This document shows, one piece after another, positions 3,821-54,062 of a stretch of 64,000 bases of DNA. How positions within the stretch are numbered: the stretch's first letter is position 1; each line of letters begins with the position of its first letter. Origin of the DNA: a virus; IMG/VR virus record IMGVR_UViG_3300034013_000676, positions 1 to 64,000 of that record, one strand, 5' to 3'. The notes beneath the pieces were generated by a model. The model was not told the origin of the DNA. It did not search any database and was given only the letters and a program-made list of their open reading frames with translations. A program made the position numbers and the translations under genes.

Positions 3821-4363
3821 TTATAATTTAACTTTCTTATAACCAATCATCCAGTGGATGTGGTGTTTTTCATTCTTTTTAGGTCCTTTATATTTATCAG
3901 CTCGATATCCCAAGGATTTTGCGAGCTTAAATGAGTACTTTTCTAGTATATCAAATTCATAATCAGTCATAATAGATTTGTGTTTGACGTAATACATTCT
4001 TTTAGCTTCCAGCAATCTCCTTTGGACTCTATCAAAATTTATTTGTAATTGTTCTAAAGGAGTGGGTTTCCTAATTGGCCTTTCTTTTAATCTTTCTAAA
4101 TTGATAAAAACCAGTGGTAAATTAGGAAATAACCTTTTAACCTTCTTCCTGAAGATATTTAAAGCTACCGGATACTTACCGTGGAACTTCAAATCACTCC
4201 ATAGAACCCAAATATCAATATTAGGATTTGAGTAGAAACCCTTAAGCTTATCTTTACCGAACCTTTTAATAAATAACCTCCTGACTTTTTTCAAATCAGA
4301 AGGTTTTTCATCATAACTCCATTTATAACCTTTTCTACTGAGCCCCGTTATATCAGTAAACAT
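3821..4363 (-). CDS. protein carrying a stand-alone NAD-dependent DNA ligase domain Ia-like module
   Basis: RRLLEAKRMYYVKHKSIMTDYEFDILEK matches the LigA Ia YY-x6-7-D-x-E-Y/F-D-x-L pattern; no KxDG adenylation motif. Confidence 0.65.
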   Translation of the reverse strand: MFTDITGLSRKGYKWSYDEKPSDLKKVRRLFIKRFGKDKLKGFYSNPNIDIWVLWSDLKFHGKYPVALNIFRKKVKRLFPNLPLVFINLERLKERPIRKPTPLEQLQINFDRVQRRLLEAKRMYYVKHKSIMTDYEFDILEKYSFKLAKSLGYRADKYKGPKKNEKHHIHWMIGYKKVKL

Positions 4364-4655: not shown

Positions 4656-5174
4656 TTATAACCCAGTAATAGCCTGTGTACAAAGATTATCTACATACTC
4701 ATTATACCTTTTACCACTGTGAGCCTTGATATGTTTTATAACTAGTCCCGGTATTAATTGTTTAAACTCAATCATAATTTCATCAATTACCCTCCACATA
4801 TCTTGATTCATAATAGGAGTACCATTCTGTCTCCTCCAGCCTCTACTTTTCCAACCAGCCATCCACTCATTAACTCCTTTAACTACATACTGGGAATCAC
4901 AGAACAATATAATCTTAGGTTTCTCTAATCCCTTGATATCAACCCTTATAGGCCTAAGCTGATAGGGTTGATAAAACTTAAGTAATAATAATAAGCCCTG
5001 AACAAAAGCAGCTATCTCCATTTCATTGTTGGTAGTGTTCTTCTTAACGTTAACTACCTCTTCCTGAATTTTACCATTAAAAACAAGAATAGAGGCTGCT
5101 GCCCCTATTCCTGGATTAGGTCTACATCCACCATCTGTGTAGATATAGATTTTATCTCTAACTTTCTTACTCAT
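4656..5174 (-). CDS. rnhA: ribonuclease HI
   Basis: YTDGGCRPNPG, TNNEME, CDSQYV, HIKAHSG..YNEYVD motifs. Confidence 0.95.
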   Translation of the reverse strand: MSKKVRDKIYIYTDGGCRPNPGIGAAASILVFNGKIQEEVVNVKKNTTNNEMEIAAFVQGLLLLLKFYQPYQLRPIRVDIKGLEKPKIILFCDSQYVVKGVNEWMAGWKSRGWRRQNGTPIMNQDMWRVIDEIMIEFKQLIPGLVIKHIKAHSGKRYNEYVDNLCTQAITGL

Positions 5175-5898
5175 TGATTCCTAAAGCTTTAGCAGTCATT
5201 GGGAAATTAGCTACAAAGATTTTCTTAATTTCCTCTGCAACTTCTCGGTGTTCCAATTGAGCATGTTGGTCACATCGTTGTTGCATATAATGAATCCATG
5301 AACGAATAGAACCATTAAGGTACATCGTAGTTGATGTAGCCATAGGTAAAACCATACGAGCACATTCTTTAGCGACACCAGCTTCTAATAAACCCCCATA
5401 AAGTGCTTGCATAGAATTTACTAAAGCTCCAACTACATAAGATGCTGGTAAATCCTTAGAAAGGTTTTGTAATAACATATCATTAAATACAGATTCGGGT
5501 AAGGTAGGGTCAAATACTTCTTCTGATGATTGGCGATTTTTAGCACCATTTTTACGAAGTTCAATAGGCTCAATATCTGTAACCTCTGCATACCTTTGAG
5601 AAAATTCTTGAGGCTTAATAGACCAGTGACGAAGTATTTGAATACCAATTGCCTTAGAAGTTGTTACCTCTACACAAAGGTTAATCATATCAAATGGTGA
5701 CCAATGTTTGTGATCAATCATATATTTGATTAGCTTATCCGATGTTTCGGTATTAAGTTGGTTTGAAGGATTTGATACACGAGCAATATAAACTAAGAGT
5801 TCTTCTGCTGTTAATTGACCATAGCCTACTAATTCGGGGTCATGGCCTGTTTCACCAGCTACAAAAGGCTTGGTAAGTGAAATTAATCTTACGTTCAT
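5167..5898 (-). CDS. thyX: FAD-dependent thymidylate synthase ThyX
   Basis: ARVSNP, HWSPF, RHWSIKPQEFSQRY (RHR-x7-S-x-R motif with R to W), ECARMVLP, HAQLEHR. Confidence 0.93.
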   Translation of the reverse strand: MNVRLISLTKPFVAGETGHDPELVGYGQLTAEELLVYIARVSNPSNQLNTETSDKLIKYMIDHKHWSPFDMINLCVEVTTSKAIGIQILRHWSIKPQEFSQRYAEVTDIEPIELRKNGAKNRQSSEEVFDPTLPESVFNDMLLQNLSKDLPASYVVGALVNSMQALYGGLLEAGVAKECARMVLPMATSTTMYLNGSIRSWIHYMQQRCDQHAQLEHREVAEEIKKIFVANFPMTAKALGINE

Positions 5899-5920
5899 AA
5901 TAATTTAATTTAATTAAAGG

Positions 5921-6385
5921 TTAGTAACCACGTTCTTGACGGTCAAAGTTTTCTTTGTTCTTAGCAACATACATAGAGGCTAATTCATCAGCAGTCATCC
6001 CAATTTTTACCATTTGGTTCATAAAGAAATGAAACTGATCCACTATCTCGTATTTAAGTTCTAGTAAATCCTCAGGATGCATATCGGATAGGGGAGTTGT
6101 TTGAGCTTGAGCATAATCTTTCTTCCACCATTTCCAAGCAGCTGAACCAAATCCCTTACCGATACCTCCAACAGCATCAATAGTTTCATGGATTTCATCA
6201 TTTAATGCATGAGCATTTGAAACAAAGAATTCAGCCACATGTCCTATTGAATTATAAGGACTGTAAAAATCTGGGCCCATTACTCTTTCTTGAAGAGATT
6301 TTTGCATAGCCAACATCTCTGTGAATGTTGGGGTAATTGTCAGGTCCAAAGGGAGCTGATGACATTTGTTGTCTGTGTTTGCCAT
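5921..6385 (-). CDS. all-alpha dCTP/dUTP pyrophosphatase, T4 gp56-like
   Basis: MLAMQKSLQ, AWKWWK, HPEDLLELKYEIVDQFHF, KNKENFDRQERGY parallel T4 gp56 as I recall it (WKKWK, SPEDQLEIKFELVDIFHF, KNKHNFERQDNGY). Confidence 0.85.
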   Translation of the reverse strand: MANTDNKCHQLPLDLTITPTFTEMLAMQKSLQERVMGPDFYSPYNSIGHVAEFFVSNAHALNDEIHETIDAVGGIGKGFGSAAWKWWKKDYAQAQTTPLSDMHPEDLLELKYEIVDQFHFFMNQMVKIGMTADELASMYVAKNKENFDRQERGY

Positions 6386-6402: not shown

Positions 6403-6765
6403 TTATAATTCTAATTTTAACTGGGGTCCAAAACCTTTACGTTGTTCAAGGAATTTTTTAGTTTCTTCAAGGTTAAGGGTGAACATAATATCAAGGAAAA
6501 TACTTTTAAGATTTTCACTTGGGTTTGCATCATAACTAACTTGTTGTATCCTTGATAAATTATGATTAGATATAACTAAATAGTTAGCCTTATGTAAAAG
6601 GATGACAATGTGTTCTACTGAGACTAGGTGGTCCTTGTATATATCTACCAATTCTGAGATTCTAAAAGCCTTGGGGAATCCTATGTTATTAGGTTGAGTT
6701 ATTCTCCTTGATTTTAACAACAACTTAAACCAGATTTTTATCCGGTCTTCTGGGGTATCATACAT
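6403..6765 (-). CDS. hypothetical protein
   Basis: ORF track; first gene of the minus-strand block. Confidence 0.65.
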   Translation of the reverse strand: MYDTPEDRIKIWFKLLLKSRRITQPNNIGFPKAFRISELVDIYKDHLVSVEHIVILLHKANYLVISNHNLSRIQQVSYDANPSENLKSIFLDIMFTLNLEETKKFLEQRKGFGPQLKLEL

Positions 6766-6887
6766 AAAAATAAAGTTTAGTGATTATAATTAGGTTATAT
6801 CAGCCGGACCTAAGGAAACCAAAGGTCCTAATAATTTACCTAAAACCCAATCACAAGAAAAGGTAAATTAAAACTGATTTATAAGAT

Positions 6888-6901
6888 TAAATAGTATATA
6901 T
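6888..6901 (-). promoter_or_regulatory. RTACTATW putative phage promoter (leftward)
   Basis: Reverse complement ATATATACTATTTA, an exact inverted copy of 7017-7030. Confidence 0.6.
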
Positions 6902-7016
6902 TTATTAATCTGGGTATTTTCTAGGAAGGCATTAAACCTAGACAATAACACTAGGACCAAACTTGTAAGTTCTATCTTTCTTCTACACTAGAGATATATA
7001 CTTACTAATAAATTAT

Positions 7017-7030
7017 ATATATACTATTTA
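7017..7030 (+). promoter_or_regulatory. RTACTATW putative phage promoter (rightward, structural operon)
   Basis: ATATATACTATTTA. Confidence 0.6.
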
Positions 7031-7146
7031 GGATGGGTACTCCCCACTTCCCTTGGGCGGTACGTTACCCGGATCCTAAGTTATTAATTTAGTATTATAT
7101 TATCATATTTATTAACGCACGCACGAGGCACTTAAAATTAAAAGAG

Positions 7147-32311: not shown

Positions 32312-32695
32312 ATGAAAACATTCATTGAGAACAATTGGCACAGACATGCCTTATTAATTTTATTAACCACTTTATTCATGTGGGGATTCAGTCAATCGGA
32401 AGATGATTGGTGGTATACAACATTTTGGGGTTACCTATTTAGCGCTGTAATATCAACAATGGTTGGTTCTGCAATTGCTGCAGTTATTGAATGGGGGCAA
32501 AGCGTTTTTATGGGAGCACATAAAGGGAAAGAAGGGGTTAAAGCAAGTAATATGGATTGGGTAGCCAGCACTATACTTGCGGCAATAGGAACTATACTCT
32601 TTTTCATATTCAATGAAATAACCCTGATAATAATCACTTTGGTATTTGTAGGTGCATGTGAAATATACAAACAATCAAATAAGAAAGATGAGTAA
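32312..32695 (+). CDS. multi-pass membrane protein
   Basis: Three to four hydrophobic segments. Confidence 0.6.
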   Translation: MKTFIENNWHRHALLILLTTLFMWGFSQSEDDWWYTTFWGYLFSAVISTMVGSAIAAVIEWGQSVFMGAHKGKEGVKASNMDWVASTILAAIGTILFFIFNEITLIIITLVFVGACEIYKQSNKKDE

Positions 32696-33242
32696 ATTAA
32701 CCAAAGCAGATAAACGGGTCCTATCATCGGAATTTAACCTACCGGTTAAATCAATTGAAACTATCGTAGCAATTGAAAGTGGTGGTAGAGGATTTGATAC
32801 CGATGGTAAAATCATTATTCAATTCGAACCAAGTTGGTTTAAAAGAAAATGGTTACAATGGACTAAATCAATTGGGCCTTGGGCTTCTAACGGAGTAGAG
32901 AACCAAACTAGGGAATGGTTAGCATTTAACGATGCATTCAAAAGAAACCCCACAGCAGCTATGGAAAGTACATCAATCGGACTAATGCAAGTAATGGGTT
33001 TCCATTATAAGTTATTGGGATTTGCAACGGTTGGTGCTATGTGGGATTATGCTGAACAAGGAGAATACCAACAACTAAGGTTGGGGTTACTTTTCATAAA
33101 GAATAATCGTAAAATGTATGGGGCAGCAAAGGATTTCTCTAAAATGAGTAATTGCGAAACATTTGCATATTACTACAACGGTTCAGCTTACAAAAAATAC
33201 AACTACCATAACAAGTTGTATAATTATAATCGTTCACTATAG
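32688..33242 (+). CDS. endolysin, N-acetylmuramidase (DUF3380-type)
   Basis: AIESGGRGF, IQFEPSWF, STSIGLMQVMGFHY, YYNGSAY; ATG at 32688 preferred. Confidence 0.9.
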   Translation: MSKLTKADKRVLSSEFNLPVKSIETIVAIESGGRGFDTDGKIIIQFEPSWFKRKWLQWTKSIGPWASNGVENQTREWLAFNDAFKRNPTAAMESTSIGLMQVMGFHYKLLGFATVGAMWDYAEQGEYQQLRLGLLFIKNNRKMYGAAKDFSKMSNCETFAYYYNGSAYKKYNYHNKLYNYNRSL

Positions 33243-33261
33243 AAAGGAGGTGGTATTAACT

Positions 33262-33296
33262 AAAAAGGGCAACTTTAAAAGGTTTGCCCTTTTTTT
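33262..33296 (+). terminator. intrinsic terminator after endolysin
   Basis: AAAAAGGGCAA / TTGCCCTTTTTTT. Confidence 0.8.
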
Positions 33297-33309
33297 AATT
33301 TAATAAAAA

Positions 33310-33693
33310 ATGAAATACGATAATATAACCGGGGGAACTGAGACAATAGAAATTATTAACCAAGTTTCAACTGATAAAACTGGGAATAACATAGTAATGA
33401 AGTTATTACTTAATTCTTTACCAGGCCCAGTACAATATAAATTAGATACATCATATATAAAGATTACAATAAAGGAATCAGACGGTTCTTTAATATATGA
33501 GGTAACTAAATTTATAAACCTAATTTCACCCGATATCTTCAATATAATATTCACTAAAGAATTTCCAACAGATACAGAGGACCTACTAGTATCTGTTGGG
33601 GGTAGGATTTTCCTAACCAACAATACCTTTTATGACTTTAATAAAGATAACCTAGGTGAACTAGAAAACATAAACTTTAATTTCTTGATATGA
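33310..33693 (+). CDS. hypothetical protein
   Basis: ORF track; ATGA overlap with the holin gene. Confidence 0.6.
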   Translation: MKYDNITGGTETIEIINQVSTDKTGNNIVMKLLLNSLPGPVQYKLDTSYIKITIKESDGSLIYEVTKFINLISPDIFNIIFTKEFPTDTEDLLVSVGGRIFLTNNTFYDFNKDNLGELENINFNFLI

Positions 33694-34292
33694 AACCCCC
33701 GATTGAAACCTTCCTAAGCCTAAAGAAAACAGTAAGCAATATATTCTATGACTTAGTTTACAACCTACTCGTCTTAGCAGATGAGCAAAGTAATTATTTG
33801 GATAGAGTTATCGCTTTCTTCAAAATACTCTTTGCATCTAGTCCAGCTATATTCCTATTTAATATAATAGGAGGCTGGTTTAATAGTAATAAGGAGTTCT
33901 CTACCTACGTTATATTATGTATATTAATAAATATGGCAGTAGGTGGTTGGAGACATCATATAGGTAAGAAAGGTTTTTCATGGTGGGAATTATTAAAGAA
34001 GACGGGTTTAATGTTCTTAGTATTATTAGCTGTTTACACAGTTTTGGAGATGATACTAAAAATTGCTAAAGAGAACATAGTAACTGAGACATTTAGAGTA
34101 GCTCTACAGGTATCCACACTTATGTATCCGGGCTCTAAACTATTTAAATCAGTTTTCATATTGACCAAAGGGGAATACCCTCCAGAATGGATAATGGCTA
34201 GGTTCTATAAGTTCAATAAGGATGGTGATTTATTAGACTTATTTAATAAGAAAGCAGAAGATAAACTAGATAAGCAAGAAGAAAATATTTAA
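33690..34292 (+). CDS. holin (putative)
   Basis: About three transmembrane helices; charged C-terminus; YPPEWIM.RF motif; near the endolysin. Confidence 0.7.
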   Translation: MKPPIETFLSLKKTVSNIFYDLVYNLLVLADEQSNYLDRVIAFFKILFASSPAIFLFNIIGGWFNSNKEFSTYVILCILINMAVGGWRHHIGKKGFSWWELLKKTGLMFLVLLAVYTVLEMILKIAKENIVTETFRVALQVSTLMYPGSKLFKSVFILTKGEYPPEWIMARFYKFNKDGDLLDLFNKKAEDKLDKQEENI

Positions 34293-34302
34293 ACTAAATT
34301 AA

Positions 34303-34707
34303 ATGGAAACTAGAATTAATTTAAACATACAAGGGGAAGTTAATTTATTTATAAATGATAAAGTTATTTATAAAGATAATAACAGTATAACTGGTGACAG
34401 TTTACAAATCCTTATGATGTCATTGGCCAAGGTACCAATAGAAACCCATATCGATAGGATTATAGTTAAAGGGGATTTTGATGATGTAATTACCCCTATA
34501 ACAAATTCCATTTTTAATGCAACCGAGGGTAGTATTACATTCATCGGTAAAATTGAAACATCCCAAGCTATAGGAACTATTTCTGAATTAAACCTAAACA
34601 CAAGTACACTGGATAAAAACCTGGCCACTAAGGTTGGTATGACAGTAGTAAAGAACAGCACAGTCGAAATCGAGATACGATGGAAGATAACCATAATTAA
34701 TTGTTAA
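34303..34707 (+). CDS. baseplate/fibre attachment protein (putative)
   Basis: GEV....K.NNSIT, GTISELNL, IRWKITI pattern. Confidence 0.5.
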   Translation: METRINLNIQGEVNLFINDKVIYKDNNSITGDSLQILMMSLAKVPIETHIDRIIVKGDFDDVITPITNSIFNATEGSITFIGKIETSQAIGTISELNLNTSTLDKNLATKVGMTVVKNSTVEIEIRWKITIINC

Positions 34708-34719
34708 AAACAAAGTAAT

Positions 34720-35850
34720 ATGCAAAAAGTATTTATAACATACAGAGAGAATGTAGAATCCCAACCACTTGGGGAATTACATGTAGGATTCCTTAAACCT
34801 GGAAGATACAATGGCTTCAGAACCTTGTCAGCAGTATCGGGATTAAACCTAAGTATAGGACATGATCACCCCCAAACAGTTAAAAAGAATGTAGCTGGGT
34901 ATAATCATTTCGGGGCTATCGTAACTACAAATGGGTCTATTGTACATGAGTCAGACCCAATCAACGTTACACTAGATACAAATTTTGGTAATGAGAATGA
35001 AAGGTTTGATCTATTATTATGTGAACACCAATATGTATCAATCATTGGGGGTCAGCCAGCAACTTACACTGTTATCAAAGGAGCTTACGATGGCTCAGTA
35101 CCAATTATCCCAAACCCAGAAAAACAAGTACTGATAGGTACATTTAGGTTAGCACCAGGTGCCTACAATATTGCAACTGGTATAACCTACACACCAGAGG
35201 TAGCTAAGTTACCTGGGGATATGACACAGGATGAATTATCCTTAGCAATAGTTGATGCTACTACTTTGGTTAAAGGCGTGGTAAGGTATGCAACAGAAGC
35301 AGAAGCAATAGCAAGGGTTAATGACCTATTAGCTTTAACACCAATTACCTTAATGGCAATGCAGGCTACTCAAACTTTAAAAGGGGTAGCTGAGATAGCA
35401 ACACCAGAAGAAGCAATAGCGGGAACAGACAATGAGAGGATAGTTACCCCTTTCTTATTAAAAGCTGGTAGAGGTAAGGTAAACCTATCATCAACGGTTT
35501 TACCATCTGGTCCCCAGGATTTTATAGTAACACCAGAGATGGATGGTCAACACGTTATAATAAGACAGGCTTTTGGACCGGGTGGAGAAGTAGAGGTAAA
35601 AGTACCGGTTGATTTACCTCAGGGGACATCACTAACAATTGTTAATAACAGAGCGGGTGGAGACATACCAATATCCTGGTTATCACCTACAGGTCTTAGT
35701 CTTATATACATGATAGCTGGTAAAACTGCTAGTATAAAATATGGGGGTACTGTAAATATATTATCTACTCACAATCCAAACCCAAGTGATCCTTTGGCAA
35801 TATCAATACCGACAATGTTTCTAACAGGTGACTTAGGTGATTCTGATTAA
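34720..35850 (+). CDS. tail fibre protein
   Basis: Two ATT..KGV...AT..EAIA repeats with ITP/VTP, as in T4 gp34/gp12-type fibres. Confidence 0.75.
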   Translation: MQKVFITYRENVESQPLGELHVGFLKPGRYNGFRTLSAVSGLNLSIGHDHPQTVKKNVAGYNHFGAIVTTNGSIVHESDPINVTLDTNFGNENERFDLLLCEHQYVSIIGGQPATYTVIKGAYDGSVPIIPNPEKQVLIGTFRLAPGAYNIATGITYTPEVAKLPGDMTQDELSLAIVDATTLVKGVVRYATEAEAIARVNDLLALTPITLMAMQATQTLKGVAEIATPEEAIAGTDNERIVTPFLLKAGRGKVNLSSTVLPSGPQDFIVTPEMDGQHVIIRQAFGPGGEVEVKVPVDLPQGTSLTIVNNRAGGDIPISWLSPTGLSLIYMIAGKTASIKYGGTVNILSTHNPNPSDPLAISIPTMFLTGDLGDSD

Positions 35851-35875
35851 TATTAAATAAAGAGAAAACAAAGAT

Positions 35876-35912
35876 AAAGGCTAAGCCGGATTTAATTCCA
35901 GTTTAGCCTTTT
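35876..35912 (+). terminator. terminator of the structural operon, overlapping the end of the convergent gene
   Basis: AAAGGCTAAGC...GTTTAGCCTTTT hairpin. Confidence 0.6.
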
Positions 35913-36513
35913 CTATTGCGTTATTAATTTCTTTACGAAGGTTTCTTATCATCTTAATATTCTTAGCTATATTATCTAAACCAAAATATTCAAGGATTAA
36001 ATATATGGGGATATTAGAATTGGATTTAGTGATACGATTTAAAATAAACGGTGGGGGGTTTAATTGGAGATTTAATAACATAAAAGCATTGTCTGATAAT
36101 TCCTTCTTCATAAACTCGGTGGCTATATCAAGGAATAATTCACCAGTAGTAATATCTTCTTTATCTGCTATATAATTTATAAGCATACTTTCCCCCTCTA
36201 AATCAACAGTATTAGAGTAGAAAACTCCCTCTCCAGAATAGGCTTTCCTAAGTACTCTTAATTTAAAAGTTTTAAGTGAATTTATTAAGGTACCTTTAAG
36301 ATGACCTTCTTCAAGGTTATTGAAATGTTTATTGAAAACGAATATGAACTTATCGTCAAACCAGGATTCTATAATATCCCGGGTAACACCATATCTTCTG
36401 TGGTCTATTTCGTAAGCTAACTTCTTTTTCAATGGTGTGATTTCTTTGTAGAGTTTCTCAAAAAGTTCTAGAGAGTAACCCTCTTTCATAGGTAGTAGTC
36501 TATGGTTTTCCAT
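35881..36513 (-). CDS. phage RNA polymerase sigma-factor-like protein
   Basis: ECF-sized (210 aa); region-2-like FEKLYKEITPLKKKLAYEI...LKGTLINSLKTF.LRVLRK; region-4-like LSDNAFMLL...EYFGL...INNAIEKAK. Confidence 0.6.
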   Translation of the reverse strand: MENHRLLPMKEGYSLELFEKLYKEITPLKKKLAYEIDHRRYGVTRDIIESWFDDKFIFVFNKHFNNLEEGHLKGTLINSLKTFKLRVLRKAYSGEGVFYSNTVDLEGESMLINYIADKEDITTGELFLDIATEFMKKELSDNAFMLLNLQLNPPPFILNRITKSNSNIPIYLILEYFGLDNIAKNIKMIRNLRKEINNAIEKAKLELNPA

Positions 36514-36544
36514 TATAATGATTGAGTTTTTAATAATTAGACTA

Positions 36545-36552
36545 CAAATATA
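36545..36552 (-). promoter_or_regulatory. host-type -7 element for the sigma-like gene
   Basis: TATATTTG on the minus strand, about 32 bp before the start; no GTGTT box. Confidence 0.65.
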
Positions 36553-36597
36553 TAAAAATAATATTAATAAAAAAAATTATTATATAAGATACTAAAA

Positions 36598-36610
36598 ATA
36601 CTATACTATC
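36598..36610 (+). promoter_or_regulatory. RTACTATW putative phage promoter (replication operon)
   Basis: ATACTATACTATC, 44 bp before ATG 36642. Confidence 0.55.
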
Positions 36611-36641
36611 TTATATATACTAAGACAAAAACAGCTTGAAT

Positions 36642-41609: not shown

Positions 41610-41992
41610 TGGCTAAGAAAAGAAAACCCCGAAAAGATATAGTAAAGAAGGTTGATTTACTAAAACCCTTAAGTTCAATTGACATACTTAAATTTGGTAC
41701 AGATGAAGACCCTTGCTTTGGTAAACTTTTTGATTTAACCGAAGACCCATGTAGAAGATGTGGAGATTCCACGCTTTGTCAAATTGTAAGTAACCAAAAG
41801 ACAGTAGCTAAAAGAGAAGAGGTAGAAAGTAATAATCGTTTTAAGGATTTAGAACTTGATGATTTTAAAGCTAAAGCACTAATTAAAAAATTAAGAAAAA
41901 AGAAAACAAGTGACGAGGCTATAAAAAATAAATTGGAAAGAAGGTTCGGCTATGAGCCTAAGAAAATAAAACAATTATTAAAAGGAAAGTAA
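41609..41992 (+). CDS. four-cysteine metal-binding protein
   Basis: C-x11-C-x2-C-x5-C (DPCFGKLFDLTEDPCRRCGDSTLC); TAATG-coupled on both sides. Confidence 0.65.
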   Translation: MAKKRKPRKDIVKKVDLLKPLSSIDILKFGTDEDPCFGKLFDLTEDPCRRCGDSTLCQIVSNQKTVAKREEVESNNRFKDLELDDFKAKALIKKLRKKKTSDEAIKNKLERRFGYEPKKIKQLLKGK

Positions 41993-42930
41993 TGGTAAAT
42001 GAACAGAAGTTAATGAAGGTATTAGAGTACTCAGATTCCCAAACAGCATGGGAACATTTGAATGAGTACTTCTTAAATAACCAGGAAGAGATACTTGAAA
42101 GGGGGGGAGCTAGATATGGTCCCCAATTGGTGTCTTATGATGTAATGATACATATAAGAAAAGCTTGGGTAGATCCTAAGTTTGACTTCGGTAATACTTT
42201 CGGTTACAGGAAACAGAAATGGACATCATTGGTTAACAATTATATCAATATGAATTACCTTGATATCCTAAAGGCTGAAGTATTGGAAAAGGTAACCAAG
42301 AAAAACCAAAGCTATAACCTCTCTATGAGATTTGATAACTCACATGGTTCTGGTAAAAACTGTTTATTATCATTAACTGTATCTAAAAGGATAGGATTAG
42401 AACATCCTATATTCATCTTCAACCTTAGGTCATCTGAGATAACTAAAAGGTTATTATGGGATTTACTTCTAGTACAAAGAATAGCTGAATATATATATGG
42501 AAATAAAGAACATATAAGTATTAAACTATTCTGTGGTAATATGTACCAAAATACAGAGTCTTTTATTATGTATAACAATCATAAAAAGATAAAAGATGTT
42601 CTAATCCCAATGGGGACAAAAACTAATGGTAAACCTAAATACAGTCTATGGCAGGAAAGGGCTACACAGATTTTAGAGGAATTTAAAAATGTGGACCCTA
42701 AGACTGTTAAGTTCAAGGTTCACCTTAGGTCAGTTAATCAAATACAGAGATGTAAGAATGGGCACCCTTTATCTGGTAACCGACCATTATTAGCTAAGGA
42801 ATGTATCATTGGGGAATCATTTAAAGTCCCATACCCAGAAGATTGCATCACAAGTGCAGAAAGAAAAAAATTCAAGAGGGGACACTTAAGAAAACTAAAG
42901 AGAGATGAAGACAGACAAAAGTCCAAGTAA
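41992..42930 (+). CDS. divergent thymidylate-synthase-fold protein A
   Basis: KNCLLSLTV (Cys at the catalytic position) and LRSSEITKRLLWD (RSxD-x7-N/D equivalent); HxY motif absent. Confidence 0.6.
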   Translation: MVNEQKLMKVLEYSDSQTAWEHLNEYFLNNQEEILERGGARYGPQLVSYDVMIHIRKAWVDPKFDFGNTFGYRKQKWTSLVNNYINMNYLDILKAEVLEKVTKKNQSYNLSMRFDNSHGSGKNCLLSLTVSKRIGLEHPIFIFNLRSSEITKRLLWDLLLVQRIAEYIYGNKEHISIKLFCGNMYQNTESFIMYNNHKKIKDVLIPMGTKTNGKPKYSLWQERATQILEEFKNVDPKTVKFKVHLRSVNQIQRCKNGHPLSGNRPLLAKECIIGESFKVPYPEDCITSAERKKFKRGHLRKLKRDEDRQKSK

Positions 42931-43807
42931 TATCCTAAAATACATGGCTGATAAACATGATATTAATCAATTAATAAAGGACTATACTCACCCAGAAGAA
43001 GTAGTCCTTTCAGAGCTAAAACCTAAAAGGAGATTAGCTGGAATATGGCAAGGCATAGATAATTATAAAGATATGACCATGTTAGTTAAAAGGGATGTAA
43101 CATTAAAAATATGTATCCCAGTATGCCCTGTAATACTTCAGGATATTACATTAGCAGATCAACCCTGGTCTGAGGCTCATTTTCAGGAAAGAGTAGGAGG
43201 TCAACCTTTAAATCCGGGTGAGTCCTATAAGATATGGCCTTATGCTAACTTCAATAAAAATACTGAGTTTAGGAAAGATGAAAAATTCGACCATAGTTAT
43301 ATGGAAAGGTTTTGGCCAAAGTTTGCGGGTTATGCCCAATTTGACGGTTTAGGTTTAAAGAATTGTAACGAACTAAGGGAATCAGATAATTTAGGTATTA
43401 GGTTTAAATATGGGGATTATAATGATGTTATCCAACAATTAACCAGAAACACTCTTACAAGGCAAGCTTACCTACCTATATTTTTCCCAGAAGATACCGG
43501 AGCAAAAAACAATATAAGAGTACCATGTACATTGGGTTATTTATTTGAAATTTGGGATGGTAAATTAGATATGACCTATTACATTCGTTCATGTGACGTA
43601 TTCCGTCATTTTCGTAATGATATTTATCTTGCAGGTAGATTGATACAACATACTACTAATATACTATTACTAAATGGAATAGATATTAAACCGGGTGAAT
43701 TGAATATGAAGATTAATAACCTTCATGCATTCGAAAATGATATTTACGCTTTAAAACAAAAAGAGAAACGATTATGCAAAGAATTGAAAGAGAACAATAT
43801 TTCATAG
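42905..43807 (+). CDS. thymidylate-synthase-fold dCMP-modifying enzyme B (dCMP hydroxymethylase-like)
   Basis: TRQAYLPIF, RVPCTLGY, YIRSCDVFRHFRNDIY, NLHAF; Asp at the specificity position as in T4 gp42. Confidence 0.85.
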   Translation: MKTDKSPSNILKYMADKHDINQLIKDYTHPEEVVLSELKPKRRLAGIWQGIDNYKDMTMLVKRDVTLKICIPVCPVILQDITLADQPWSEAHFQERVGGQPLNPGESYKIWPYANFNKNTEFRKDEKFDHSYMERFWPKFAGYAQFDGLGLKNCNELRESDNLGIRFKYGDYNDVIQQLTRNTLTRQAYLPIFFPEDTGAKNNIRVPCTLGYLFEIWDGKLDMTYYIRSCDVFRHFRNDIYLAGRLIQHTTNILLLNGIDIKPGELNMKINNLHAFENDIYALKQKEKRLCKELKENNIS

Positions 43808-44196
43808 AAATTGCTAAAATTACTGCCAAGAGATCAATCTGCCCCCGCAAACAAGTAGGGGCAGTTTTGGTTAAAGATGGGCGTATAATAGCCACGGGGT
43901 ACAATGGAGTATTACCTAAGGAAGAACATAAATTTGCTTTAAACCCCGACGGATCATCAGCTACTATACATGCTGAGGCTAACCTAATAGCTTTTTGTGC
44001 TAAGGAGGGTATACCCACAAAAGGTACAACACTTTATACAACATTATCACCTTGTGATAAATGTGCTGAACTAATCATACAGGCCGGTATTATTAAGGTT
44101 AATTATATTGAGGAATATAGAGATTTAACCGGGGTAATTACATTGGTAAATAATGATATTGATATAAACCTTAAATGGGGAAAAAATGAAATCTGA
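43774..44196 (+). CDS. dCMP deaminase
   Basis: RS.C.RKQVGAVLVKDGRIIATGYNG, HAEAN, SPCDKC. Confidence 0.95.
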   Translation: MQRIEREQYFIEIAKITAKRSICPRKQVGAVLVKDGRIIATGYNGVLPKEEHKFALNPDGSSATIHAEANLIAFCAKEGIPTKGTTLYTTLSPCDKCAELIIQAGIIKVNYIEEYRDLTGVITLVNNDIDINLKWGKNEI

Positions 44197-46462
44197 ATAT
44201 AAACTAATAACCAAGAAAAAGCATGTGGACAAACTCATAACTTATGTAAAGCAAACGGGTTATTGTTCTTTTGACTTTGAGACGAATGCCAGGCCATTTC
44301 ATGATCCCTTATTCTTACCCACCATAATAGGTATATCATTTCAACCAGGCTCTGGGTACATAATACCATTAGCTCATAAGGATTCACCGTTTAAAAGGAA
44401 AGGTATATGGTTGGATATCCTAAAGAAAATAGGTAAAGAGCTAATCTCAAATCCTAGGATTATTAAAGTTGCCTGGAATGCTAGTTTTGAACTTAAGGTA
44501 TTAAAGCTTTATAAAATCGAAGTTAAAGGTAGATTATTCGATGGTATAATGGCTAAATATTTACTTAAAGAGGAACGACCAAATGGTTTAAAAGAACAGG
44601 TAACGTCATTATTACCTTTCTTTGCAGATTATGATTTAAAAGGTAAACCCTCATCAAAGGCTAAACGTGAAAAGATTATAGAATTTTGGACTAACGTTGA
44701 ACTTAATGAACTATCTAAATATTGTGCTCTAGACTGTGACCTAACTCTACGATTAATGATGTTTTATGAGAAACTCTTATTAAAACATGACTTCTATAAA
44801 TTGTTTAGGAATATGTTGATGATGGGCACCAGAGTATTATCAGATTCTGAGTATCACGGTATGCCTGTAGACCAAAAATTCCTTGAAGGCTTAGTAGTAA
44901 CTTATGGTGAGAGGGTAATTGAGTTAGAGAAAGAGCTTTACAAACACCCAATCATATCTAAATTCGAGAAAGGCCTAGTAAAAGACAGGGTTAAAAAATA
45001 TATATTTAAAATCGAAACTGAGATTGAGGATATAGAAATAGAAATGAAGGAGATGGATGCCAATTATAGAGAGTTGGTACTTAGTCGGGATAATGAAGCT
45101 GCCCGTAGGGTTATGAATAAAATAAATGCTAAAGCTAAATTGATTAAATCCCGAGAGGAGAAGATTGATAGGATAATAGCACATGATTTTAGGACTAAAG
45201 GCGAACAAAAGATGTTAGAGAAGGTTAATTTTGCTTCTCCCGAACAAATGGTCCAATTGTTTCATAAATCACCCTATGGGTTTAGGTTTAAAGTAGTTAA
45301 ATACACTGTCGACGAATTTAAAAAAGAAACAGATAGACCTTCAACTGATGAGGAAGTATTAACTGAGTTAATGACTAAGGATAAATCAGGTTTTATCGAA
45401 AGGTTATTAGAATTTAGGGGTACATCTAAATTATACTCTACCTATATCGTTGGTATGAAAGACATCTTATCGGTTGATTCAAGGATACACCCCTCATATT
45501 TATTATTTGGGACAGTTACAGGTAGATTATCATCCATAAACCCTAATTTCCAAAATATACCCCGAGATACAACCAATGCTGATATCAAGAAAATGTTTAT
45601 ACCTCCAAAAAATAAAATATTACTACAGCTGGATTACTCTCAAGCTGAGTTAAGGGTAATGGCGGCACAGGCAAATGAAACAGAGATGCTACGTTGGTTT
45701 AGAGAAGGAAGAGATATTCACTTAGCTGTTGCATGTGATAAAAACAAATGGGATTATGAGTGGGCATTACCTATATATTTAAAAGAGGATAAAGCAGACC
45801 CCAATTACACCAAAATAAAGGTAGAACGTAAATATGCTAAAACAATTAACTTTGGTATTATCTATGGGCAAACAGCAAATAAACTTTCCATTGGAATGGG
45901 TACATCAATCAAGGAGGCTGAGATATATCTAAAGGAATATAACAAACGTTTCCCTAATATCGCTAAATTCATCAAGAAACAAAATGCTTATGCCGAAAGA
46001 CACGGCTTCGTTAAAAATATATTTGGTAGAAAACGAAGGTTACCTAATATTTGGCATTCAGAATGGGGTAAAAAAGCTGAAGCACAAAGACAATCGGTAA
46101 ATGCTCCAATTCAGGGAGCAGCTTCTGATTATACATTGTTCTCATCTATCCTTATTTGGGAAAAAATCAGAAAAGGGGAATTACCAAAAGATATGATACA
46201 ATGTTATACTGTACATGATTCACTAGGATTCTTCTTAGACCCAAAAGATGTTCATTGGGTAGTTCCTATATTAGATGAAATTTGTTCTAACCCCGAAACG
46301 ATGGAATGGTTTGGTTTTCAAATCGATTCGGTTAAAATGCAAGTTGATTTTGAGGTAAGTCATATAAGCTGGGCTAAATTAAGTACATACCATAAGAATG
46401 AAGATTACATTAAACCCACTAGAAACTTCAACAGGGTAGAATATAATAAGCAAGTGGCTTAG
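44186..46462 (+). CDS. polA: family A DNA polymerase with 3'-5' exonuclease
   Basis: FDFET, WNASFE, YCALD; TGRLSS.NPNFQNIP, DYSQAELR, RKYAKTINFGIIYG, NAPIQG.ASD, TVHDS. Confidence 0.97.
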   Translation: MKSEYKLITKKKHVDKLITYVKQTGYCSFDFETNARPFHDPLFLPTIIGISFQPGSGYIIPLAHKDSPFKRKGIWLDILKKIGKELISNPRIIKVAWNASFELKVLKLYKIEVKGRLFDGIMAKYLLKEERPNGLKEQVTSLLPFFADYDLKGKPSSKAKREKIIEFWTNVELNELSKYCALDCDLTLRLMMFYEKLLLKHDFYKLFRNMLMMGTRVLSDSEYHGMPVDQKFLEGLVVTYGERVIELEKELYKHPIISKFEKGLVKDRVKKYIFKIETEIEDIEIEMKEMDANYRELVLSRDNEAARRVMNKINAKAKLIKSREEKIDRIIAHDFRTKGEQKMLEKVNFASPEQMVQLFHKSPYGFRFKVVKYTVDEFKKETDRPSTDEEVLTELMTKDKSGFIERLLEFRGTSKLYSTYIVGMKDILSVDSRIHPSYLLFGTVTGRLSSINPNFQNIPRDTTNADIKKMFIPPKNKILLQLDYSQAELRVMAAQANETEMLRWFREGRDIHLAVACDKNKWDYEWALPIYLKEDKADPNYTKIKVERKYAKTINFGIIYGQTANKLSIGMGTSIKEAEIYLKEYNKRFPNIAKFIKKQNAYAERHGFVKNIFGRKRRLPNIWHSEWGKKAEAQRQSVNAPIQGAASDYTLFSSILIWEKIRKGELPKDMIQCYTVHDSLGFFLDPKDVHWVVPILDEICSNPETMEWFGFQIDSVKMQVDFEVSHISWAKLSTYHKNEDYIKPTRNFNRVEYNKQVA

Positions 46463-49113: not shown

Positions 49114-49993
49114 GGTATTAGTAATTGATGGTAATAATATGTTATATCGAGCATATTATAAATTCGAAAATTTACAAAATAACCATGGCCAATTAACTGG
49201 AGTAATTTATGGGTTCCCTTATATTTTAAGGGGACTCATTAGTTTACACAAACCCCAGAAGGTAGTGGTAGTATTTGATGGAGGCCGAGATAAGAGAAGA
49301 ACTGAGATTTTACCCGAATACAAGAAAAGGGATAAAAAGGCGGGATTTGATGGAGAATCATTTTTCTTTCAAAAAGAGAAGGTTAAGGAATTGTTGGATT
49401 TATTAGGTATTCCAATGATAGAGGTTAAAAAGAGAGAAGCTGATGATATTATCTGGTTGATAGCTCGTAAATTAAAACGGGAAAAACATGAGGTAGTCAT
49501 AGTATCATCGGATAAGGATTTTAACCAATTAATCTGTAAGGGTATTTCAATATGGAATCCTAAAAGTGATAAGCGATATACTCATCTTAATTTGAAACAA
49601 GAAGTTGGATATAATGCTAATCAATGTGTAGATTATTTAATACTTGATGGGGACTCTTCGGATAATATAAAAGGTATGCCTGGGATTGGTCCTAAAAAAG
49701 CTATGGCATTCCTTGATAGAGGGATATCAATTAGAAACTATTTAATTAGTAAAGATAAAGAACTACCCGGACTTAGTAGAAATAAACTAGAACCCGTTTT
49801 CTTATTAAACCGCGAGCTAATTGATATACGTATCTTTTGTAGGAGAAACTTAAAACATTTAAAAGTTAAAGTCCCTAAAGTAACTCTGAAAAAAATAAAT
49901 AAAAAAGAATTAGCCTATTTCTGTGCTAATTATGATATTTCAACATTTGTAAAACCAGACTTCATAGAAACCTTTAACAAGTTATTAAAATGA
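49100..49993 (+). CDS. 5'-3' exonuclease/flap endonuclease
   Basis: IDGNNMLYRAYY, VFDG, EADDII, SSDKDF, GDSSDNIKG.PGIGPKKA. Confidence 0.95.
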   Translation: MSKNKVLVIDGNNMLYRAYYKFENLQNNHGQLTGVIYGFPYILRGLISLHKPQKVVVVFDGGRDKRRTEILPEYKKRDKKAGFDGESFFFQKEKVKELLDLLGIPMIEVKKREADDIIWLIARKLKREKHEVVIVSSDKDFNQLICKGISIWNPKSDKRYTHLNLKQEVGYNANQCVDYLILDGDSSDNIKGMPGIGPKKAMAFLDRGISIRNYLISKDKELPGLSRNKLEPVFLLNRELIDIRIFCRRNLKHLKVKVPKVTLKKINKKELAYFCANYDISTFVKPDFIETFNKLLK

Positions 49994-50673
49994 AACCACA
50001 ACCAATCTTTATAACTGGTACGTCCGGTATCGGTAAAACCACACTTGCTAATTACATAGCAGCAAAATACAGAATACCCTTTATAAATGGGTCTTCCTCT
50101 GTTTTATGGAAAAAATATAATATTAGTTCCCATAAAGAACTACTAGAAATGGGAGTTAATAACCCTAATAAAGGAATAGATTTCCAATTGGAATTACTCA
50201 ATTATAGAGAAGAACTAATAAAGAAGACAGGTAATACTCATTTCGTAACTGATAGGAGTATAATAGATAACCTAGTTTACTTCATGTTTCAAAATTCACC
50301 CTACCTAAGTGAACAAGATACTGTTCATTATATAAATTCCTGTATTGAAAGCTTTCAAAATATATTAGAGTTATGTACTCCAAATGCAAGGTATAAAATG
50401 ATTTACCTTAGTAGAGATTTTTACCCTGATGATGAAATGCCAGTAATAGAAAATGATAGTAAGAGAATCACTAATGAATACTACCAAGATGTAATGTCTG
50501 CTATATTTAACCATGTGATTGATAACAACTTATTGGACTTTAATCATACACCAGAAAAATACCTTAAAATAAGAGATTATAACTGGGATAGGAGATTAGC
50601 TCTAACCGAAACTTTCTTAGAGAAAGAACCTAATATGTTCGATCATTTATATAACAATTGGATTTTGAAATAA
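49990..50673 (+). CDS. deoxynucleoside monophosphate kinase (P-loop)
   Basis: ITGTSGIGKTT, FVTDRSIID, ENDSKR lid. Confidence 0.75.
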   Translation: MKPQPIFITGTSGIGKTTLANYIAAKYRIPFINGSSSVLWKKYNISSHKELLEMGVNNPNKGIDFQLELLNYREELIKKTGNTHFVTDRSIIDNLVYFMFQNSPYLSEQDTVHYINSCIESFQNILELCTPNARYKMIYLSRDFYPDDEMPVIENDSKRITNEYYQDVMSAIFNHVIDNNLLDFNHTPEKYLKIRDYNWDRRLALTETFLEKEPNMFDHLYNNWILK

Positions 50674-53519: not shown

Positions 53520-54062
53520 ATGAGTAACGGTAAAAGAAAAGGTAACAAAGCTGAAAGGGAACTGGCTAAATGGTGGAAAACATGGTCAGGCTTTGAATTT
53601 ACTCGGGTACCAGCTTCTGGGGGATTAAGGTGGAAAACTATGGTTAACACAACCACCTCAGATTTAATATGTGCTGATGACCGACACAATAGAAGGTTTC
53701 AATTCTCAATTGAATCTAAATCCTATAAGGATATAAACTTCGAACATCTTATATTGGGTAACAAGAACTCAGCAATAAGGAATTTCTGGGACCAATGTAA
53801 TACAGATGCAGAAAGAAGTAATAAGGTACCCATACTCTTTATGAGGTACAATGGTATGTCTAAAAATACCTGGTTTGTAGTAATGCCTAGTTACGTATAT
53901 AACCTATTCTTTCCTACACTAGTTAAATTTGATCACAATAGGTTTGTAGTAAGTGGACCTGATAACATTGTCATCATGAACTCAAATGATTTACTAAAAA
54001 CAGATTATATGAAACTTCACTTAACCCTTAAAAAATTAAGAAAGAATGACAAAGCAGAATAA
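53520..54062 (+). CDS. Holliday junction resolvase (PD-(D/E)xK, Hjc-like)
   Basis: KGNKAERELAK, RVPASGG, SDL, IESK, WDQ. Confidence 0.85.
   Translation: MSNGKRKGNKAERELAKWWKTWSGFEFTRVPASGGLRWKTMVNTTTSDLICADDRHNRRFQFSIESKSYKDINFEHLILGNKNSAIRNFWDQCNTDAERSNKVPILFMRYNGMSKNTWFVVMPSYVYNLFFPTLVKFDHNRFVVSGPDNIVIMNSNDLLKTDYMKLHLTLKKLRKNDKAE

Follow-up and report, generated by a model that had tools for sequence, protein, structure and literature searches.

What is a homologue of T4 gp56 doing in a phage that is no relative of T4? The gene at 5921–6385 lies in the 64,000-nucleotide stretch analysed here (the window; positions 1 to 64,000 of IMG/VR virus record IMGVR_UViG_3300034013_000676), part of the complete 78-kb genome of an uncultured phage, with terminal repeats and 34% G+C. 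Megablast of window positions 1–25000 against phages returned a single 44-nt match, inside thyX, and the terminase is best matched by those of rat and human faecal phages (60–63%) and Flavobacterium phages (33%). The initial annotation had assigned the gene to a T4-like scheme of cytosine replacement spread over several loci. We consider it rather probable that the gene encodes a gp56-family pyrophosphatase representing the displaced NTPase of a conserved cassette, here split over three loci, and that the cassette specifies a cytosine-replacement pathway (Table 1). The cassette appears to be built to put a modified cytosine in place of cytosine in phage DNA.

Table 1 Genes of the window considered in the analysis, with their coordinates and supporting matches
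Feature	Position	Strand	Length and evidence
RNase H	4656..5174	-	PF00075 E 4e-29
Flavin-dependent thymidylate synthase ThyX	5167..5898	-	243 aa; PF02511 134 bits, E 5e-39
gp56-family all-alpha dNTP pyrophosphatase, candidate dCTPase/dUTPase	5921..6385	-	154 aa; T4 gp56 homology, PF08761
X, unnamed phage family protein preceding the TS-like gene	41992..42930	+	312 aa
Thymidylate-synthase-family (TS-like) enzyme, cytosine-type active site	42905..43807	+	PF00303 34.6 bits vs 24.3
dCMP deaminase	43774..44196	+	140 aa; PF00383 E 5e-25
Family A DNA polymerase with 3'-5' exonuclease (PolA)	44186..46462	+	PF00476 E 2e-80; PF01612 E 9e-14
P-loop nucleotide-kinase-like protein, candidate modified-dNMP kinase	49990..50673	+	227 aa; AAA_28 E 4e-9
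NUDIX hydrolase	62209-62670		

The resemblance to gp56 proposed initially is borne out by alignment: T4 gp56 (NC_000866) and the protein encoded at 5921–6385 are identical at 53 of 137 positions (39%, E 9e-33; residues 24–154). A tblastn search of 50,697 phage records with this protein matched 1,461, the alignment spanning 80% or more of the query in 1,437, and identity was below 60% in every case; the best among the matches listed were T4-like phages, in which the gene is annotated as dCTP pyrophosphatase, dUTPase, NTP pyrophosphohydrolase or hypothetical protein. PF08761 (dUTPase_2) exceeded its cut-off (33.5 versus 22.9 bits), aligning to residues 114–154 only, and phrog_173 matched at E 3e-23. 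An alignment of 22 sequences including T4 gp56 contains 21 invariant columns, among them E64, E67, K85, W87, K88, E109, E113, D116, K142, N143, N146, R149 and Y154, and taken by itself the gene is unremarkable within its family. We know of no sequence determinant that distinguishes C from U specificity in gp56-type enzymes, and the structure search found no solved gp56 structure. Profile searches of the complete genome found PF08761 at 5921–6385 only and returned no match to PF00692, PF03819 or PF01503, which marks the gene as the only predicted all-alpha or trimeric dUTPase-type gene of this phage. With no second dUTPase in the genome, the dUTPase role would fall to this gene or to the host; the NUDIX hydrolase could be an alternative dNTPase.

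Gene 56 occurs in nearly all of the T4 relatives in Table 4 of Petrov et al. 2010 (PMC2993671) and gene 42 in a named subset only; the same paper describes gp56 as the source of the essential dUTPase function in T4 and dUTPase as the role of its homologue in relatives without gene 42. Because gene 56 is present in such relatives, homology to gp56 alone is not diagnostic of cytosine replacement. As had been pointed out, the gene adjoins thyX, the two being separated by 22 nt within one leftward gene string. The neighbour clearly belongs to the ThyX family, scoring 134.7 bits with TIGR02170 (cut-off 87.9) and having viral ThyX (2cfa/4fzb, E 4e-49) as its best solved relative. Its motif is RHWx7S where RHRx7S is standard, and the variant recurs: among the best 150 representatives the motif was RHR in 79, RHW in 17, RHK in 16 and another form in 8, with none found in 30, so that RHW accounts for 17 of the 120 motif-bearing proteins. 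The RNase H gene, which overlaps the ThyX gene by 8 nt, is a member of the same string and lies outside the pathway. The string was given no promoter; the motif TAnnTTTG was not enriched (93 versus 88.7 expected) and was absent from the minus strand at 6766–7146.

The adjacency to ThyX, together with a distance of about 36 kb to the TS-like gene, speaks against the cassette reading and suits two enzymes that simply lead from dUTP through dUMP to dTMP. In that case the gp56-like enzyme would be a dimeric-type dUTPase only, passing dUMP to the adjacent ThyX in an ordinary thymidylate supply and being functionally unconnected with the TS-like cassette. We regard this as unlikely, while noting what favours it: the close spacing of the two genes, the lack of another dUTPase in the genome, and the dUTPase function of gp56 and its homologues described above. 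It is further favoured by the relative MT121964.1 (terminase 61% identical), which keeps X and the TS-like gene and in which a protein search found no gp56-type gene, no ThyX and no deaminase; a different PF08761 gene lies just upstream of its X. Against it, ThyX adjacency is no family trait. ThyX was found within 3 kb of the gp56-like gene at 0 of 80 IMG/VR loci and within 10 kb at 0 of 80 metagenome loci, and a conserved gp56–ThyX gene pair was rejected. Within the same metagenome set, one locus carried a gp42-like gene and two carried ThyA.

The main support for a cytosine-replacement pathway is the TS-like gene, which the initial annotation did not cite. It matches phrog_160 at E 1e-28 and directly precedes the dCMP deaminase and PolA genes; since a public collection calls the gene at 287 aa, translation may begin 13 codons downstream of the start given here. 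The active-site residues are Cys208, Thr209, Asp231 and Asp239, and Arg205 precedes the Cys by three positions. In alignments, C208 and D239 correspond to C148 and D179 of T4 gp42 and to C146 and N177 of ThyA, and in E. coli numbering the protein thus carries Cys146, Thr147 and Asp177. According to PMC8670742, positions 177 and 147 are the two that best set apart the TS homologues of cytosine-modified contigs. The best solved relative is the CMP 5-hydroxymethylase MilA (E 2e-6).

Which group such an enzyme would transfer is less readily predicted. Orthology to gp42 was rejected, the identity being only 24% (E 2e-4) and the TS-like clade separating from gp42 with 100/100 support; T4 gp42 itself sits on a long branch, and long-branch joining is possible. 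At the ThyA L143 position, where an acidic residue (Asp or Glu) is typical of 5-hm-dCMP synthases according to the main text of PMC13326640, this enzyme has Arg205 rather than an acidic residue, as do 76 of 80 relatives (Arg). The criterion for 5-hydroxy-dCMP synthases in the same text is D169N. The corresponding residue here is Asp231, conserved as Asp in 76 of 80 relatives, and because Asp169 is retained and not replaced by Asn, the enzyme is not a 5-hydroxy-dCMP synthase of the RB69 gp48 type by that criterion. Two more positions at which ThyA and gp42 agree are altered: Gln replaces Arg127, and Phe replaces Tyr209, the 3'-OH contact in ThyA. Phe209 extends throughout the TS-like clade. Given Arg at the L143 position, Gln127 and Phe209, the form of the substrate is uncertain. 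Hydroxymethylcytosine as the product is likewise not established, since the clade stands apart from gp42, Arg takes the place of the acidic residue and no glycosyltransferase was found with PF09198 or PF00535. A literature search covering PMC13326640 and PMC8670742 without their supplements found no paper that identifies the product of the TS-like clade or of X.

X had no match in Pfam or NCBIfam. Among 660 candidates, 256 homologues were found at E ≤ 0.001, and none of the 120 homologues listed contains a Pfam domain. Comparison of X with the TS-like family by hhalign gave a weak match (probability 0.6, E 0.09) that pairs the invariant C124, R146 and D157 of X with C208, R228 and D239 of the TS-like protein. 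A low-confidence ESM Atlas model (pLDDT 0.59) resembled clusters with PF00303 members at TM 0.50–0.59, and the X profile searched against solved structures returned SecA alone (E 0.1). Judging from the model and the profile alignment, X is possibly a very divergent thymidylate-synthase fold.

The dCMP deaminase and the family A polymerase of the initial annotation were both recovered by profile search (Table 1), and the deaminase is 29–40% identical to the deaminases at the same position in the cassettes of HippoPololi, P744, Triscuit and Muddy. The gene described as dNMP-kinase-like retained its kinase-like character and lost its relation to T4 gp1. In addition to AAA_28 it matched phrog_2107 'thymidylate kinase' (E 4e-10) and scored 26.3 bits with the dNK model, just below the cut-off of 27; it shares with gp1 the P-loop alone (E 0.008 over 30 aa), for which reason gp1 orthology was rejected, and a search of solved structures returned P-loop noise only. 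Ten of 80 cassette loci carry a homologue of it (25–32% identity, E 1e-13 to 2e-20) downstream of PolA.

Together with X, the TS-like enzyme (Asp177), the deaminase and PolA, which are contiguous at 41992–46462, the kinase at 49990 and the all-alpha NTPase at 5921 make up a cassette of six functions, all present in this one genome. The cassette also occurs in the cultured phages Triscuit, P744, Strzyga, HippoPololi and Muddy. Around the TS-like gene of 80 IMG/VR loci, the partners lay within 6 kb as follows: NTPase at 47, X at 58, deaminase at 59, kinase at 48 and PolA at 60; all five were so placed at 40 loci, in the exact order at 27. The HMMs used for the partner families drew on the window and four cultured phages only, so that divergent partners can be missed by these counts. 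Where at least 4 kb of upstream sequence was available, the NTPase was present at 44 of 69 loci. The signature R-C-[T/S]...RSxD...D was found at 76 of the 80 loci, the regular expression failing on three and giving an odd result on one. The gp56-like, TS-like and X proteins each have homologues at 50–83% identity.

Several of these observations argue against a thymidylate supply detached from the cassette. The cassette carries an all-alpha NTPase at 47 of the 80 loci, and this genome holds no other candidate for it. Moreover, gp56-type enzymes fill the NTPase slot elsewhere: the protein encoded at 5921–6385 is the best match to the cassette NTPases of loci L131 (40% over 157 aa, E 1.5e-36) and L149 (38%, E 1e-16). 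In the converse direction, a TS-like gene lay within 3 kb of the gp56-like gene at one (L028) of 80 IMG/VR gp56-like loci. Of 33 large IMG/VR records in which a gp56-like gene occurs, 15 contain some PF00303 match, and 13 of these 15 carry the Asp177 form (identical rows dropped, with L097 representing L096, L110 representing L092, L108 representing L094 and L104 representing L095). The T4-like logic over several loci has become more plausible through the Asp177 TS-like gene, the sole NTPase and the conserved cassette; a gp42 orthologue and a gp1 kinase were rejected (separate clade, P-loop only), and an hmC product is not established (Arg205). Within this cassette, the gp56-like gene would supply the single role that the genome would otherwise lack.

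From the identities of the genes we infer the following steps. The gp56-like enzyme would hydrolyse dCTP and dCDP to dCMP, and dUTP and dUDP to dUMP, and the loss of dCTP and dUTP would keep canonical dC and dU from phage DNA. The TS-like enzyme, possibly with X, would then place a one-carbon-derived group on C5 of dCMP, hydroxymethyl being a first guess only. The P-loop kinase and host NDP kinase would convert the product into the modified triphosphate, which PolA would incorporate. Part of the dCMP would be diverted to dUMP by the deaminase, and ThyX would turn dUMP from both sources into dTMP for a genome of 34% G+C.

Restriction palindromes, which had been put forward as retained sites compatible with modification, do not support this pathway. 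The sites named, GGATCC at 7071 and GAATTC at 12304 and 16324, do exist; they are survivors of depleted classes (GGATCC, 1 seen versus 10.3 expected; GAATTC, 10 versus 18.8). C-containing palindromes are significantly depleted, GATC is strongly avoided (46 versus 153.5 expected, observed/expected about 0.26), and among 6-mers expected five times or more, CATATG, TCCGGA and CCATGG show the strongest depletion. Such avoidance indicates that the DNA is not blanket-protected. Neither carbamoyltransferase nor DNA methyltransferase was found by profile searches of the complete genome, in which PF02543, PF09198, PF00535, PF00145 and PF02086 had no match; glycosyltransferases were covered by PF09198 and PF00535, the former of which matched no control genome either. 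A protein-by-protein scan for modifiers covered ORFs of about 90 aa or more outside the structural-gene block 9381–33623. Palindrome avoidance, the lack of a modifying transferase among these searches and the composition of MT121964.1 all count against the proposed pathway.

The same data bear on two further explanations. Thymine rather than cytosine might be partly replaced, if the deaminase acts on dCMP already modified at C5 by the TS-like enzyme and converts it into a 5-substituted dUMP (for example 5-hm-dUMP). The deaminase gene, present near so many TS-like genes and directly following them here and in Muddy, would suit this route, as would the fact that the palindromes remaining under selection all contain C. 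We nevertheless give it little credence, as the phage also makes ordinary dTMP, by ThyX, general Pfam scans brought up no 5-hmdU-processing gene family that we noticed, and PMC8670742 describes the co-occurrence of TS and dCMP deaminase domains as frequently confined to contigs that had been selected for modified cytosine. Similarly unlikely is canonical virion DNA, the TS-like enzyme, X and NTPase serving only to reshape nucleotide pools or to make a product that is a small molecule or directed at RNA. In its favour, phages whose DNA is unprotected typically avoid restriction sites strongly, MilA belongs to antibiotic biosynthesis and Phe209 is found across the whole clade; against it, the cassette shows tight synteny with a replicative polymerase and a nucleotide kinase (48–60 of 80 loci), and the same study reports an enrichment of Asp177 TS homologues among cytosine-modified contigs.

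Returning to cytosine replacement by the cassette, we tentatively propose a more specific form of it, as a conjecture on which we would not yet rely. In this gut-type phage, Muddy, Triscuit, P744 and Strzyga, dC might be fully replaced by a C5-modified cytosine other than 5-methyl-, 5-hydroxymethyl- or 5-hydroxycytosine, made by X and the Arg143/Asp177 enzyme as a TS-fold pair and enforced by a gp56-type enzyme through dCTP destruction. The product of the Asp177/Arg143 enzyme and its partner X could be a new DNA base. If cytosine replacement is correct, T4-style dCTP destruction admitting only modified cytosine extends beyond the T4 relatives and is part of a portable six-gene cassette in PolA phages of Actinomycetota, Proteobacteria and probably gut Bacteroidota, including mycobacteriophage Muddy, a phage used in therapy. 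It would then bear on the restriction and CRISPR sensitivity, sequencing and cloning of cassette phages, and on the way in which host defences or immune sensors perceive the DNA of these phages.

Several known systems invite comparison. The dimeric dUTPases of trypanosomatids belong to the same Pfam family and have WKxWK, ExxD-FHF and KNxxNxxRQ-type stretches alignable with the gp56-like protein; they are about 270 aa long compared with 154 aa, and the Leishmania major enzyme (2cje) matched only marginally (E 1.7), far from the value obtained with gp56. The RB69/DLP3 5-hydroxy-dCMP pathway described in PMC13326640 likewise combines a dNMP kinase with a TS homologue of the Asp177 form, against a gp56-type gene background in T4 relatives; the D169N change is absent here, and we noticed no arabinosylation genes. 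The cytosine-modified metavirome contigs of the MetaGPA study (PMC8670742), which combine an Asp177 TS, a PRA-PH-type pyrophosphatase and a dCMP deaminase, have the same domain set and the same residues at 177 and 147 as this phage. That study followed a carbamoyltransferase branch, for which this genome has no candidate, and the pyrophosphatase here is of the gp56/PF08761 type, with no PRA-PH domain detected. In the hmC pathway of T4 (gp56, gp42, gp1, Cd, Td and glucosyltransferases), gp56 has 171 aa, with some 15–20 N-terminal residues that the protein here lacks, and its gene lies near primase and helicase genes instead of beside ThyX; the invariant acidic and basic motif residues are common to both proteins. 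Unlike gp42, the TS homologue of this phage belongs to another clade, has Arg at the L143 position and is paired with X; the kinase has no homology to gp1 beyond the P-loop, no glucosyltransferase was found with PF09198 or PF00535, and Td and gp43 are replaced by ThyX and PolA. Like T4, however, this phage encodes an Asp177 TS homologue, a dCMP deaminase and a thymidylate synthase alongside its gp56-like gene, and the T4 roles of NTPase, cytosine-type TS, kinase, deaminase and thymidylate synthase can all be assigned in it.

The window spans positions 1-64000 of a 77,888-bp viral record with direct terminal repeats that IMG/VR rates as 100% complete. A megablast search of window positions 1-25000 against phage records returned no close cultured relative; the terminase is 60–63% identical to rat and human faecal sequences and 33% identical to Flavobacterium phages. 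Four minus-strand genes form a tight string, with gaps of 17 nt between the 120-aa and 154-aa ORFs and 22 nt between the 154-aa ORF and ThyX, and an 8-nt overlap between ThyX and RNase H. The 154-aa product shares 39% of 137 aligned residues with T4 gp56 (NC_000866; E 9e-33) and scores 33.5 bits against PF08761 (dUTPase_2; cut-off 22.9), over its C-terminal 41 residues only. It matches 1461 of 50,697 phage records, nearly all full-length, and the top matches listed are from T4-like phages, annotated as dCTP pyrophosphatase, dUTPase, NTP pyrophosphohydrolase or hypothetical protein. Alignment of 22 sequences, T4 gp56 included, revealed 21 invariant columns, among them the acidic residues E64/E67 and E109/E113/D116 and the C-terminal K142, N143, N146, R149 and Y154. 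No significant similarity to solved structures was found, the nearest being Leishmania dUTPase (E 1.7). The T4 gp56 similarity, the Pfam and PHROG matches and the invariant columns therefore bear out the initial annotation of a gp56-like gene beside thyX, and we regard this family assignment, made at the sequence level, as secure. In the same region, a 180-aa ORF weakly matches only the N-terminal Ia domain of NAD-dependent DNA ligase (PF22745, E 0.009; phrog_3869, E 3e-5) and may encode a stand-alone ligase fragment or an adaptor.

Features of the phage genome in window coordinates
Feature	Position	Strand	Basis or remark
NAD-dependent ligase Ia-like, 180-aa ORF	3821-4363	-	weak match
RNase H, 172-aa ORF	4656-5174	-	Pfam; PHROGs agree
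ThyX, 243-aa ORF	5167-5898	-	Pfam; PHROGs agree
gp56-like, 154-aa ORF	5921-6385	-	PF08761, T4 gp56 similarity; PHROGs agree
120-aa ORF	6403-6765	-	first of tight gene string
X, 312-aa protein	41992-42930	+	
TS-like	42905-43807	+	PF00303
dCMP deaminase	43774-44196		Pfam
Family A polymerase (PolA)	44186-46462		Pfam
P-loop kinase-like protein	49990-50673		Pfam
242-aa protein	54046-54774	+	phrog_6386
NUDIX hydrolase	62209-62670	+	PF00293

Pfam scans of the replication module recovered the dCMP deaminase, family A polymerase and P-loop kinase-like genes that had been annotated initially. Adjoining the deaminase on its upstream side lies a thymidylate-synthase-family (TS-like) gene, the only PF00303 match in the complete genome (34.6 bits; cut-off 24.3). 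Among solved structures its product is closest to MilA (E 2e-6), a CMP 5-hydroxymethylase. Of the Lactobacillus casei TS sequences listed after MilA, the first, u11908 (entries 1njc/1njd), has an Asp at the position of Asn229 in wild-type TS. When the TS-like protein is aligned with T4 gp42, its Cys208 matches the catalytic Cys148 and its Asp239 matches Asp179; in a multiple alignment these residues occupy E. coli ThyA positions 146 and 177. Further residues of the protein, in ThyA numbering, are Gln127, Thr147, Asp169, His173 and Phe209, and Arg occupies the L143 position, three residues before the Cys. According to PMC13326640, Asn177 confers dUMP and Asp177 dCMP specificity, enzymes that make methyl products have a bulky hydrophobic residue at 143 and those that make hydroxymethyl products an Asp or Glu, and D169N marks 5-hydroxy-dCMP synthases; PMC8670742 names positions 177 and 147 as best separating the TS homologues of cytosine-modified and unmodified contigs. 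By these published rules, the residues at 177 and 169 identify the protein as a predicted cytosine-type enzyme and rule out a 5-hydroxy-dCMP synthase, whereas Arg at 143 departs from both the methyl and the T4 hydroxymethyl pattern. In maximum-likelihood analysis of 27 TS-family proteins, the tree of which carries a long-branch warning, the protein groups in a clade of nine (100/100 support) apart from the gp42-like (98/95) and ThyA (100/100) clades. Separately, a gp56-like-bearing jumbo-phage contig (IMGVR_UViG_3300002143_000235, 313,708 bp) encodes a ThyA-like protein, found as two Pfam pieces inside one 373-aa frame, whose Leu143, His147 and Asp177 form the pattern expected of a dCMP methyltransferase.

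In the window phage an uninterrupted block runs from X through the TS-like gene and the deaminase to PolA, with the kinase 3.5 kb beyond PolA. We surveyed 80 IMG/VR loci carrying a TS-like relative, using HMMs built from the window and cultured-phage examples and a 6-kb radius. The TS-like gene is accompanied by an all-alpha NTPase in 47 loci, X in 58, the deaminase in 59, the kinase in 48, PolA in 60 and ThyX in 4. The full set of five main partners is present in 40 loci, 27 of the 80 have the exact order kinase-NTPase-X-TS-deaminase-PolA, and 19, several from contigs of at least 90 kb, have the TS-like gene alone. The signature Arg-x-x-Cys-[Thr/Ser] ... Arg-Ser-x-Asp ... Asp is present in 76 of 80, and 10 have a relative of the window kinase downstream of PolA.

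The cassette NTPases elsewhere are distant relatives of the gp56-like protein within one superfamily (Triscuit gp63, E 1e-5; HippoPololi gp47, E 8e-5): 17 of 47 reach E <1e-5 against it, and two, at the IMG/VR loci L131 (40% over 157 aa) and L149 (38%), are of its own type. The complete genome holds one PF08761 gene and no match to trimeric dUTPase (PF00692), MazG (PF03819) or PRA-PH (PF01503), so that the gp56-like gene is, as judged from these profiles, the only candidate for the cassette NTPase role; the sole other conceivable dNTPase is the right-arm NUDIX protein (E 1e-5). The right arm also encodes a T4 endonuclease V-like pyrimidine-dimer glycosylase (PF03013, E 4e-13; genome 66051-66500, L008:3051-3500), and a 242-aa protein in the window matches phrog_6386 'transcription antiterminator' (E 1.5e-6) and no Pfam family.

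When the survey was reversed, starting from gp56-like genes (42–51% identity) at 80 IMG/VR loci, the TS-like gene lay within 3 kb in one and ThyX in none, and ThyX was absent within 10 kb from all 80 metagenome loci; the gp56-like/ThyX adjacency is therefore peculiar to the window phage lineage. Among the 33 largest gp56-like-bearing records, mostly fragments rated 17–88% complete, 15 have a TS-family gene. An Asp177 form is present in 13 of these (gp42-like in nine, from the clade of the window protein in three and ThyA-like in one), and two have only an Asn177 ThyA; gp56-type genes thus go together with cytosine-type TS homologues.

The closest solved relative of the window ThyX is the viral ThyX 2cfa (E 4e-49). 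Its motif is RHW rather than the canonical RHR; among the best 150 of 6228 representatives we found RHR in 79, RHW in 17, RHK in 16, another motif in 8 and none in 30. Because RHW thus recurs (17 of 120 motif-bearing proteins, including the two closest to the window ThyX), we treat this ThyX as presumably functional. X contains no known domain; 256 homologues of it are detectable. Its profile gave no significant match to that of the TS-like family, but the invariant Cys124, Arg146 and Asp157 of X line up with the TS-like Cys, Arg and Asp, and a low-confidence ESM Atlas model gives TM 0.50–0.59 to clusters with TS members. A TS fold for X is a lead, not a result.

Several observations weaken a dC-replacement reading. 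Palindromic sites had been described as retained, but shuffles preserving dinucleotides predict more GATC (46 observed, sites spanning 3472-63831, versus 153.5 ± 11.7), GGATCC (1 versus 10.3 ± 3.2) and GAATTC (10 versus 18.8 ± 4.2) in the window. Genome-wide, against maximal-order Markov expectations, GATC is the most depleted of 256 tetramers (62 versus 240, about four-fold), and, among hexamers expected five or more times, the three with the strongest depletion are all palindromes, reduced 6- to 9-fold (CATATG 2 versus 18, TCCGGA 1 versus 7, CCATGG 2 versus 12). Palindromes are depleted as a class (Mann-Whitney p 0.0025 for 4-mers, 0.0007 for 6-mers), and CpG O/E is 0.48. The depletion shows present or recent exposure of the DNA at sites containing C; it does not exclude a modified base, as some enzymes cut modified DNA. 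The kinase, proposed as the gp1 counterpart, proved not to be a gp1 homologue on comparison with T4 gp1, and searches of the genome for glycosyltransferases (PF09198, PF00535), carbamoyltransferase (PF02543) and Dam-type and C5 methyltransferases (PF02086, PF00145) gave no match. The nearest deposited relative, MT121964.1 (terminase 61% identity), has X (37%, E 4e-53) next to a TS-like gene (26%, E 8e-21), and protein searches found in it no gp56-type gene, ThyX or deaminase. Directly upstream of the pair lies a different PF08761 match, within a 331-aa open frame, and a DNA cytosine methyltransferase gene precedes the terminase operon, approximately where the window phage has the ThyX/gp56-like string.

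The proposal of a T4-like dC-replacement pathway is partly supported, chiefly by the predicted cytosine-type TS-like gene and the cassette context; the evidence originally cited for it is not its main support. We consider it rather probable that the gp56-like enzyme serves as the pyrophosphatase for dCTP and dUTP in a pathway that modifies cytosine at C5 before replication, and that it supplies ThyX as well. In Petrov et al. 2010 (PMC2993671), all tabulated T4 relatives except four giant phages have gene 56 and only a named subset has gene 42, so that gp56 homology by itself need not mean dC replacement; the same source calls the dUTPase function of gene 56 essential. That the window enzyme is a dUTPase only seems less likely.

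In the literature searched, we found no paper identifying the product of the cassette pathway. Phages of Gordonia, Microbacterium, Curtobacterium, Mycobacterium, Brevundimonas and Yersinia have 'thymidylate synthase' genes with 36–46% identity to the TS-like protein. Triscuit, P744, Strzyga, HippoPololi and Muddy share the order thymidylate-kinase-like gene, all-alpha NTPase (annotated 'dUTPase' or 'MazG-like'), hypothetical protein of about 280–340 aa, TS-like gene, dCMP deaminase and DNA polymerase I, except that the Strzyga neighbourhood has no dCMP deaminase, and all five TS-like proteins have a common residue signature. In Muddy (KF024728, record 32411-37942), gp49 to gp44 are the kinase, dUTPase, a 297-aa hypothetical protein, the TS-like protein, a deaminase homologue and Pol I; the TS-like protein has the R-C-T...RSCD...D signature and 42% identity to that of the window, and gp45 is an unannotated dCMP deaminase homologue (39%). 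Muddy thus offers a cultured test system for the cassette.
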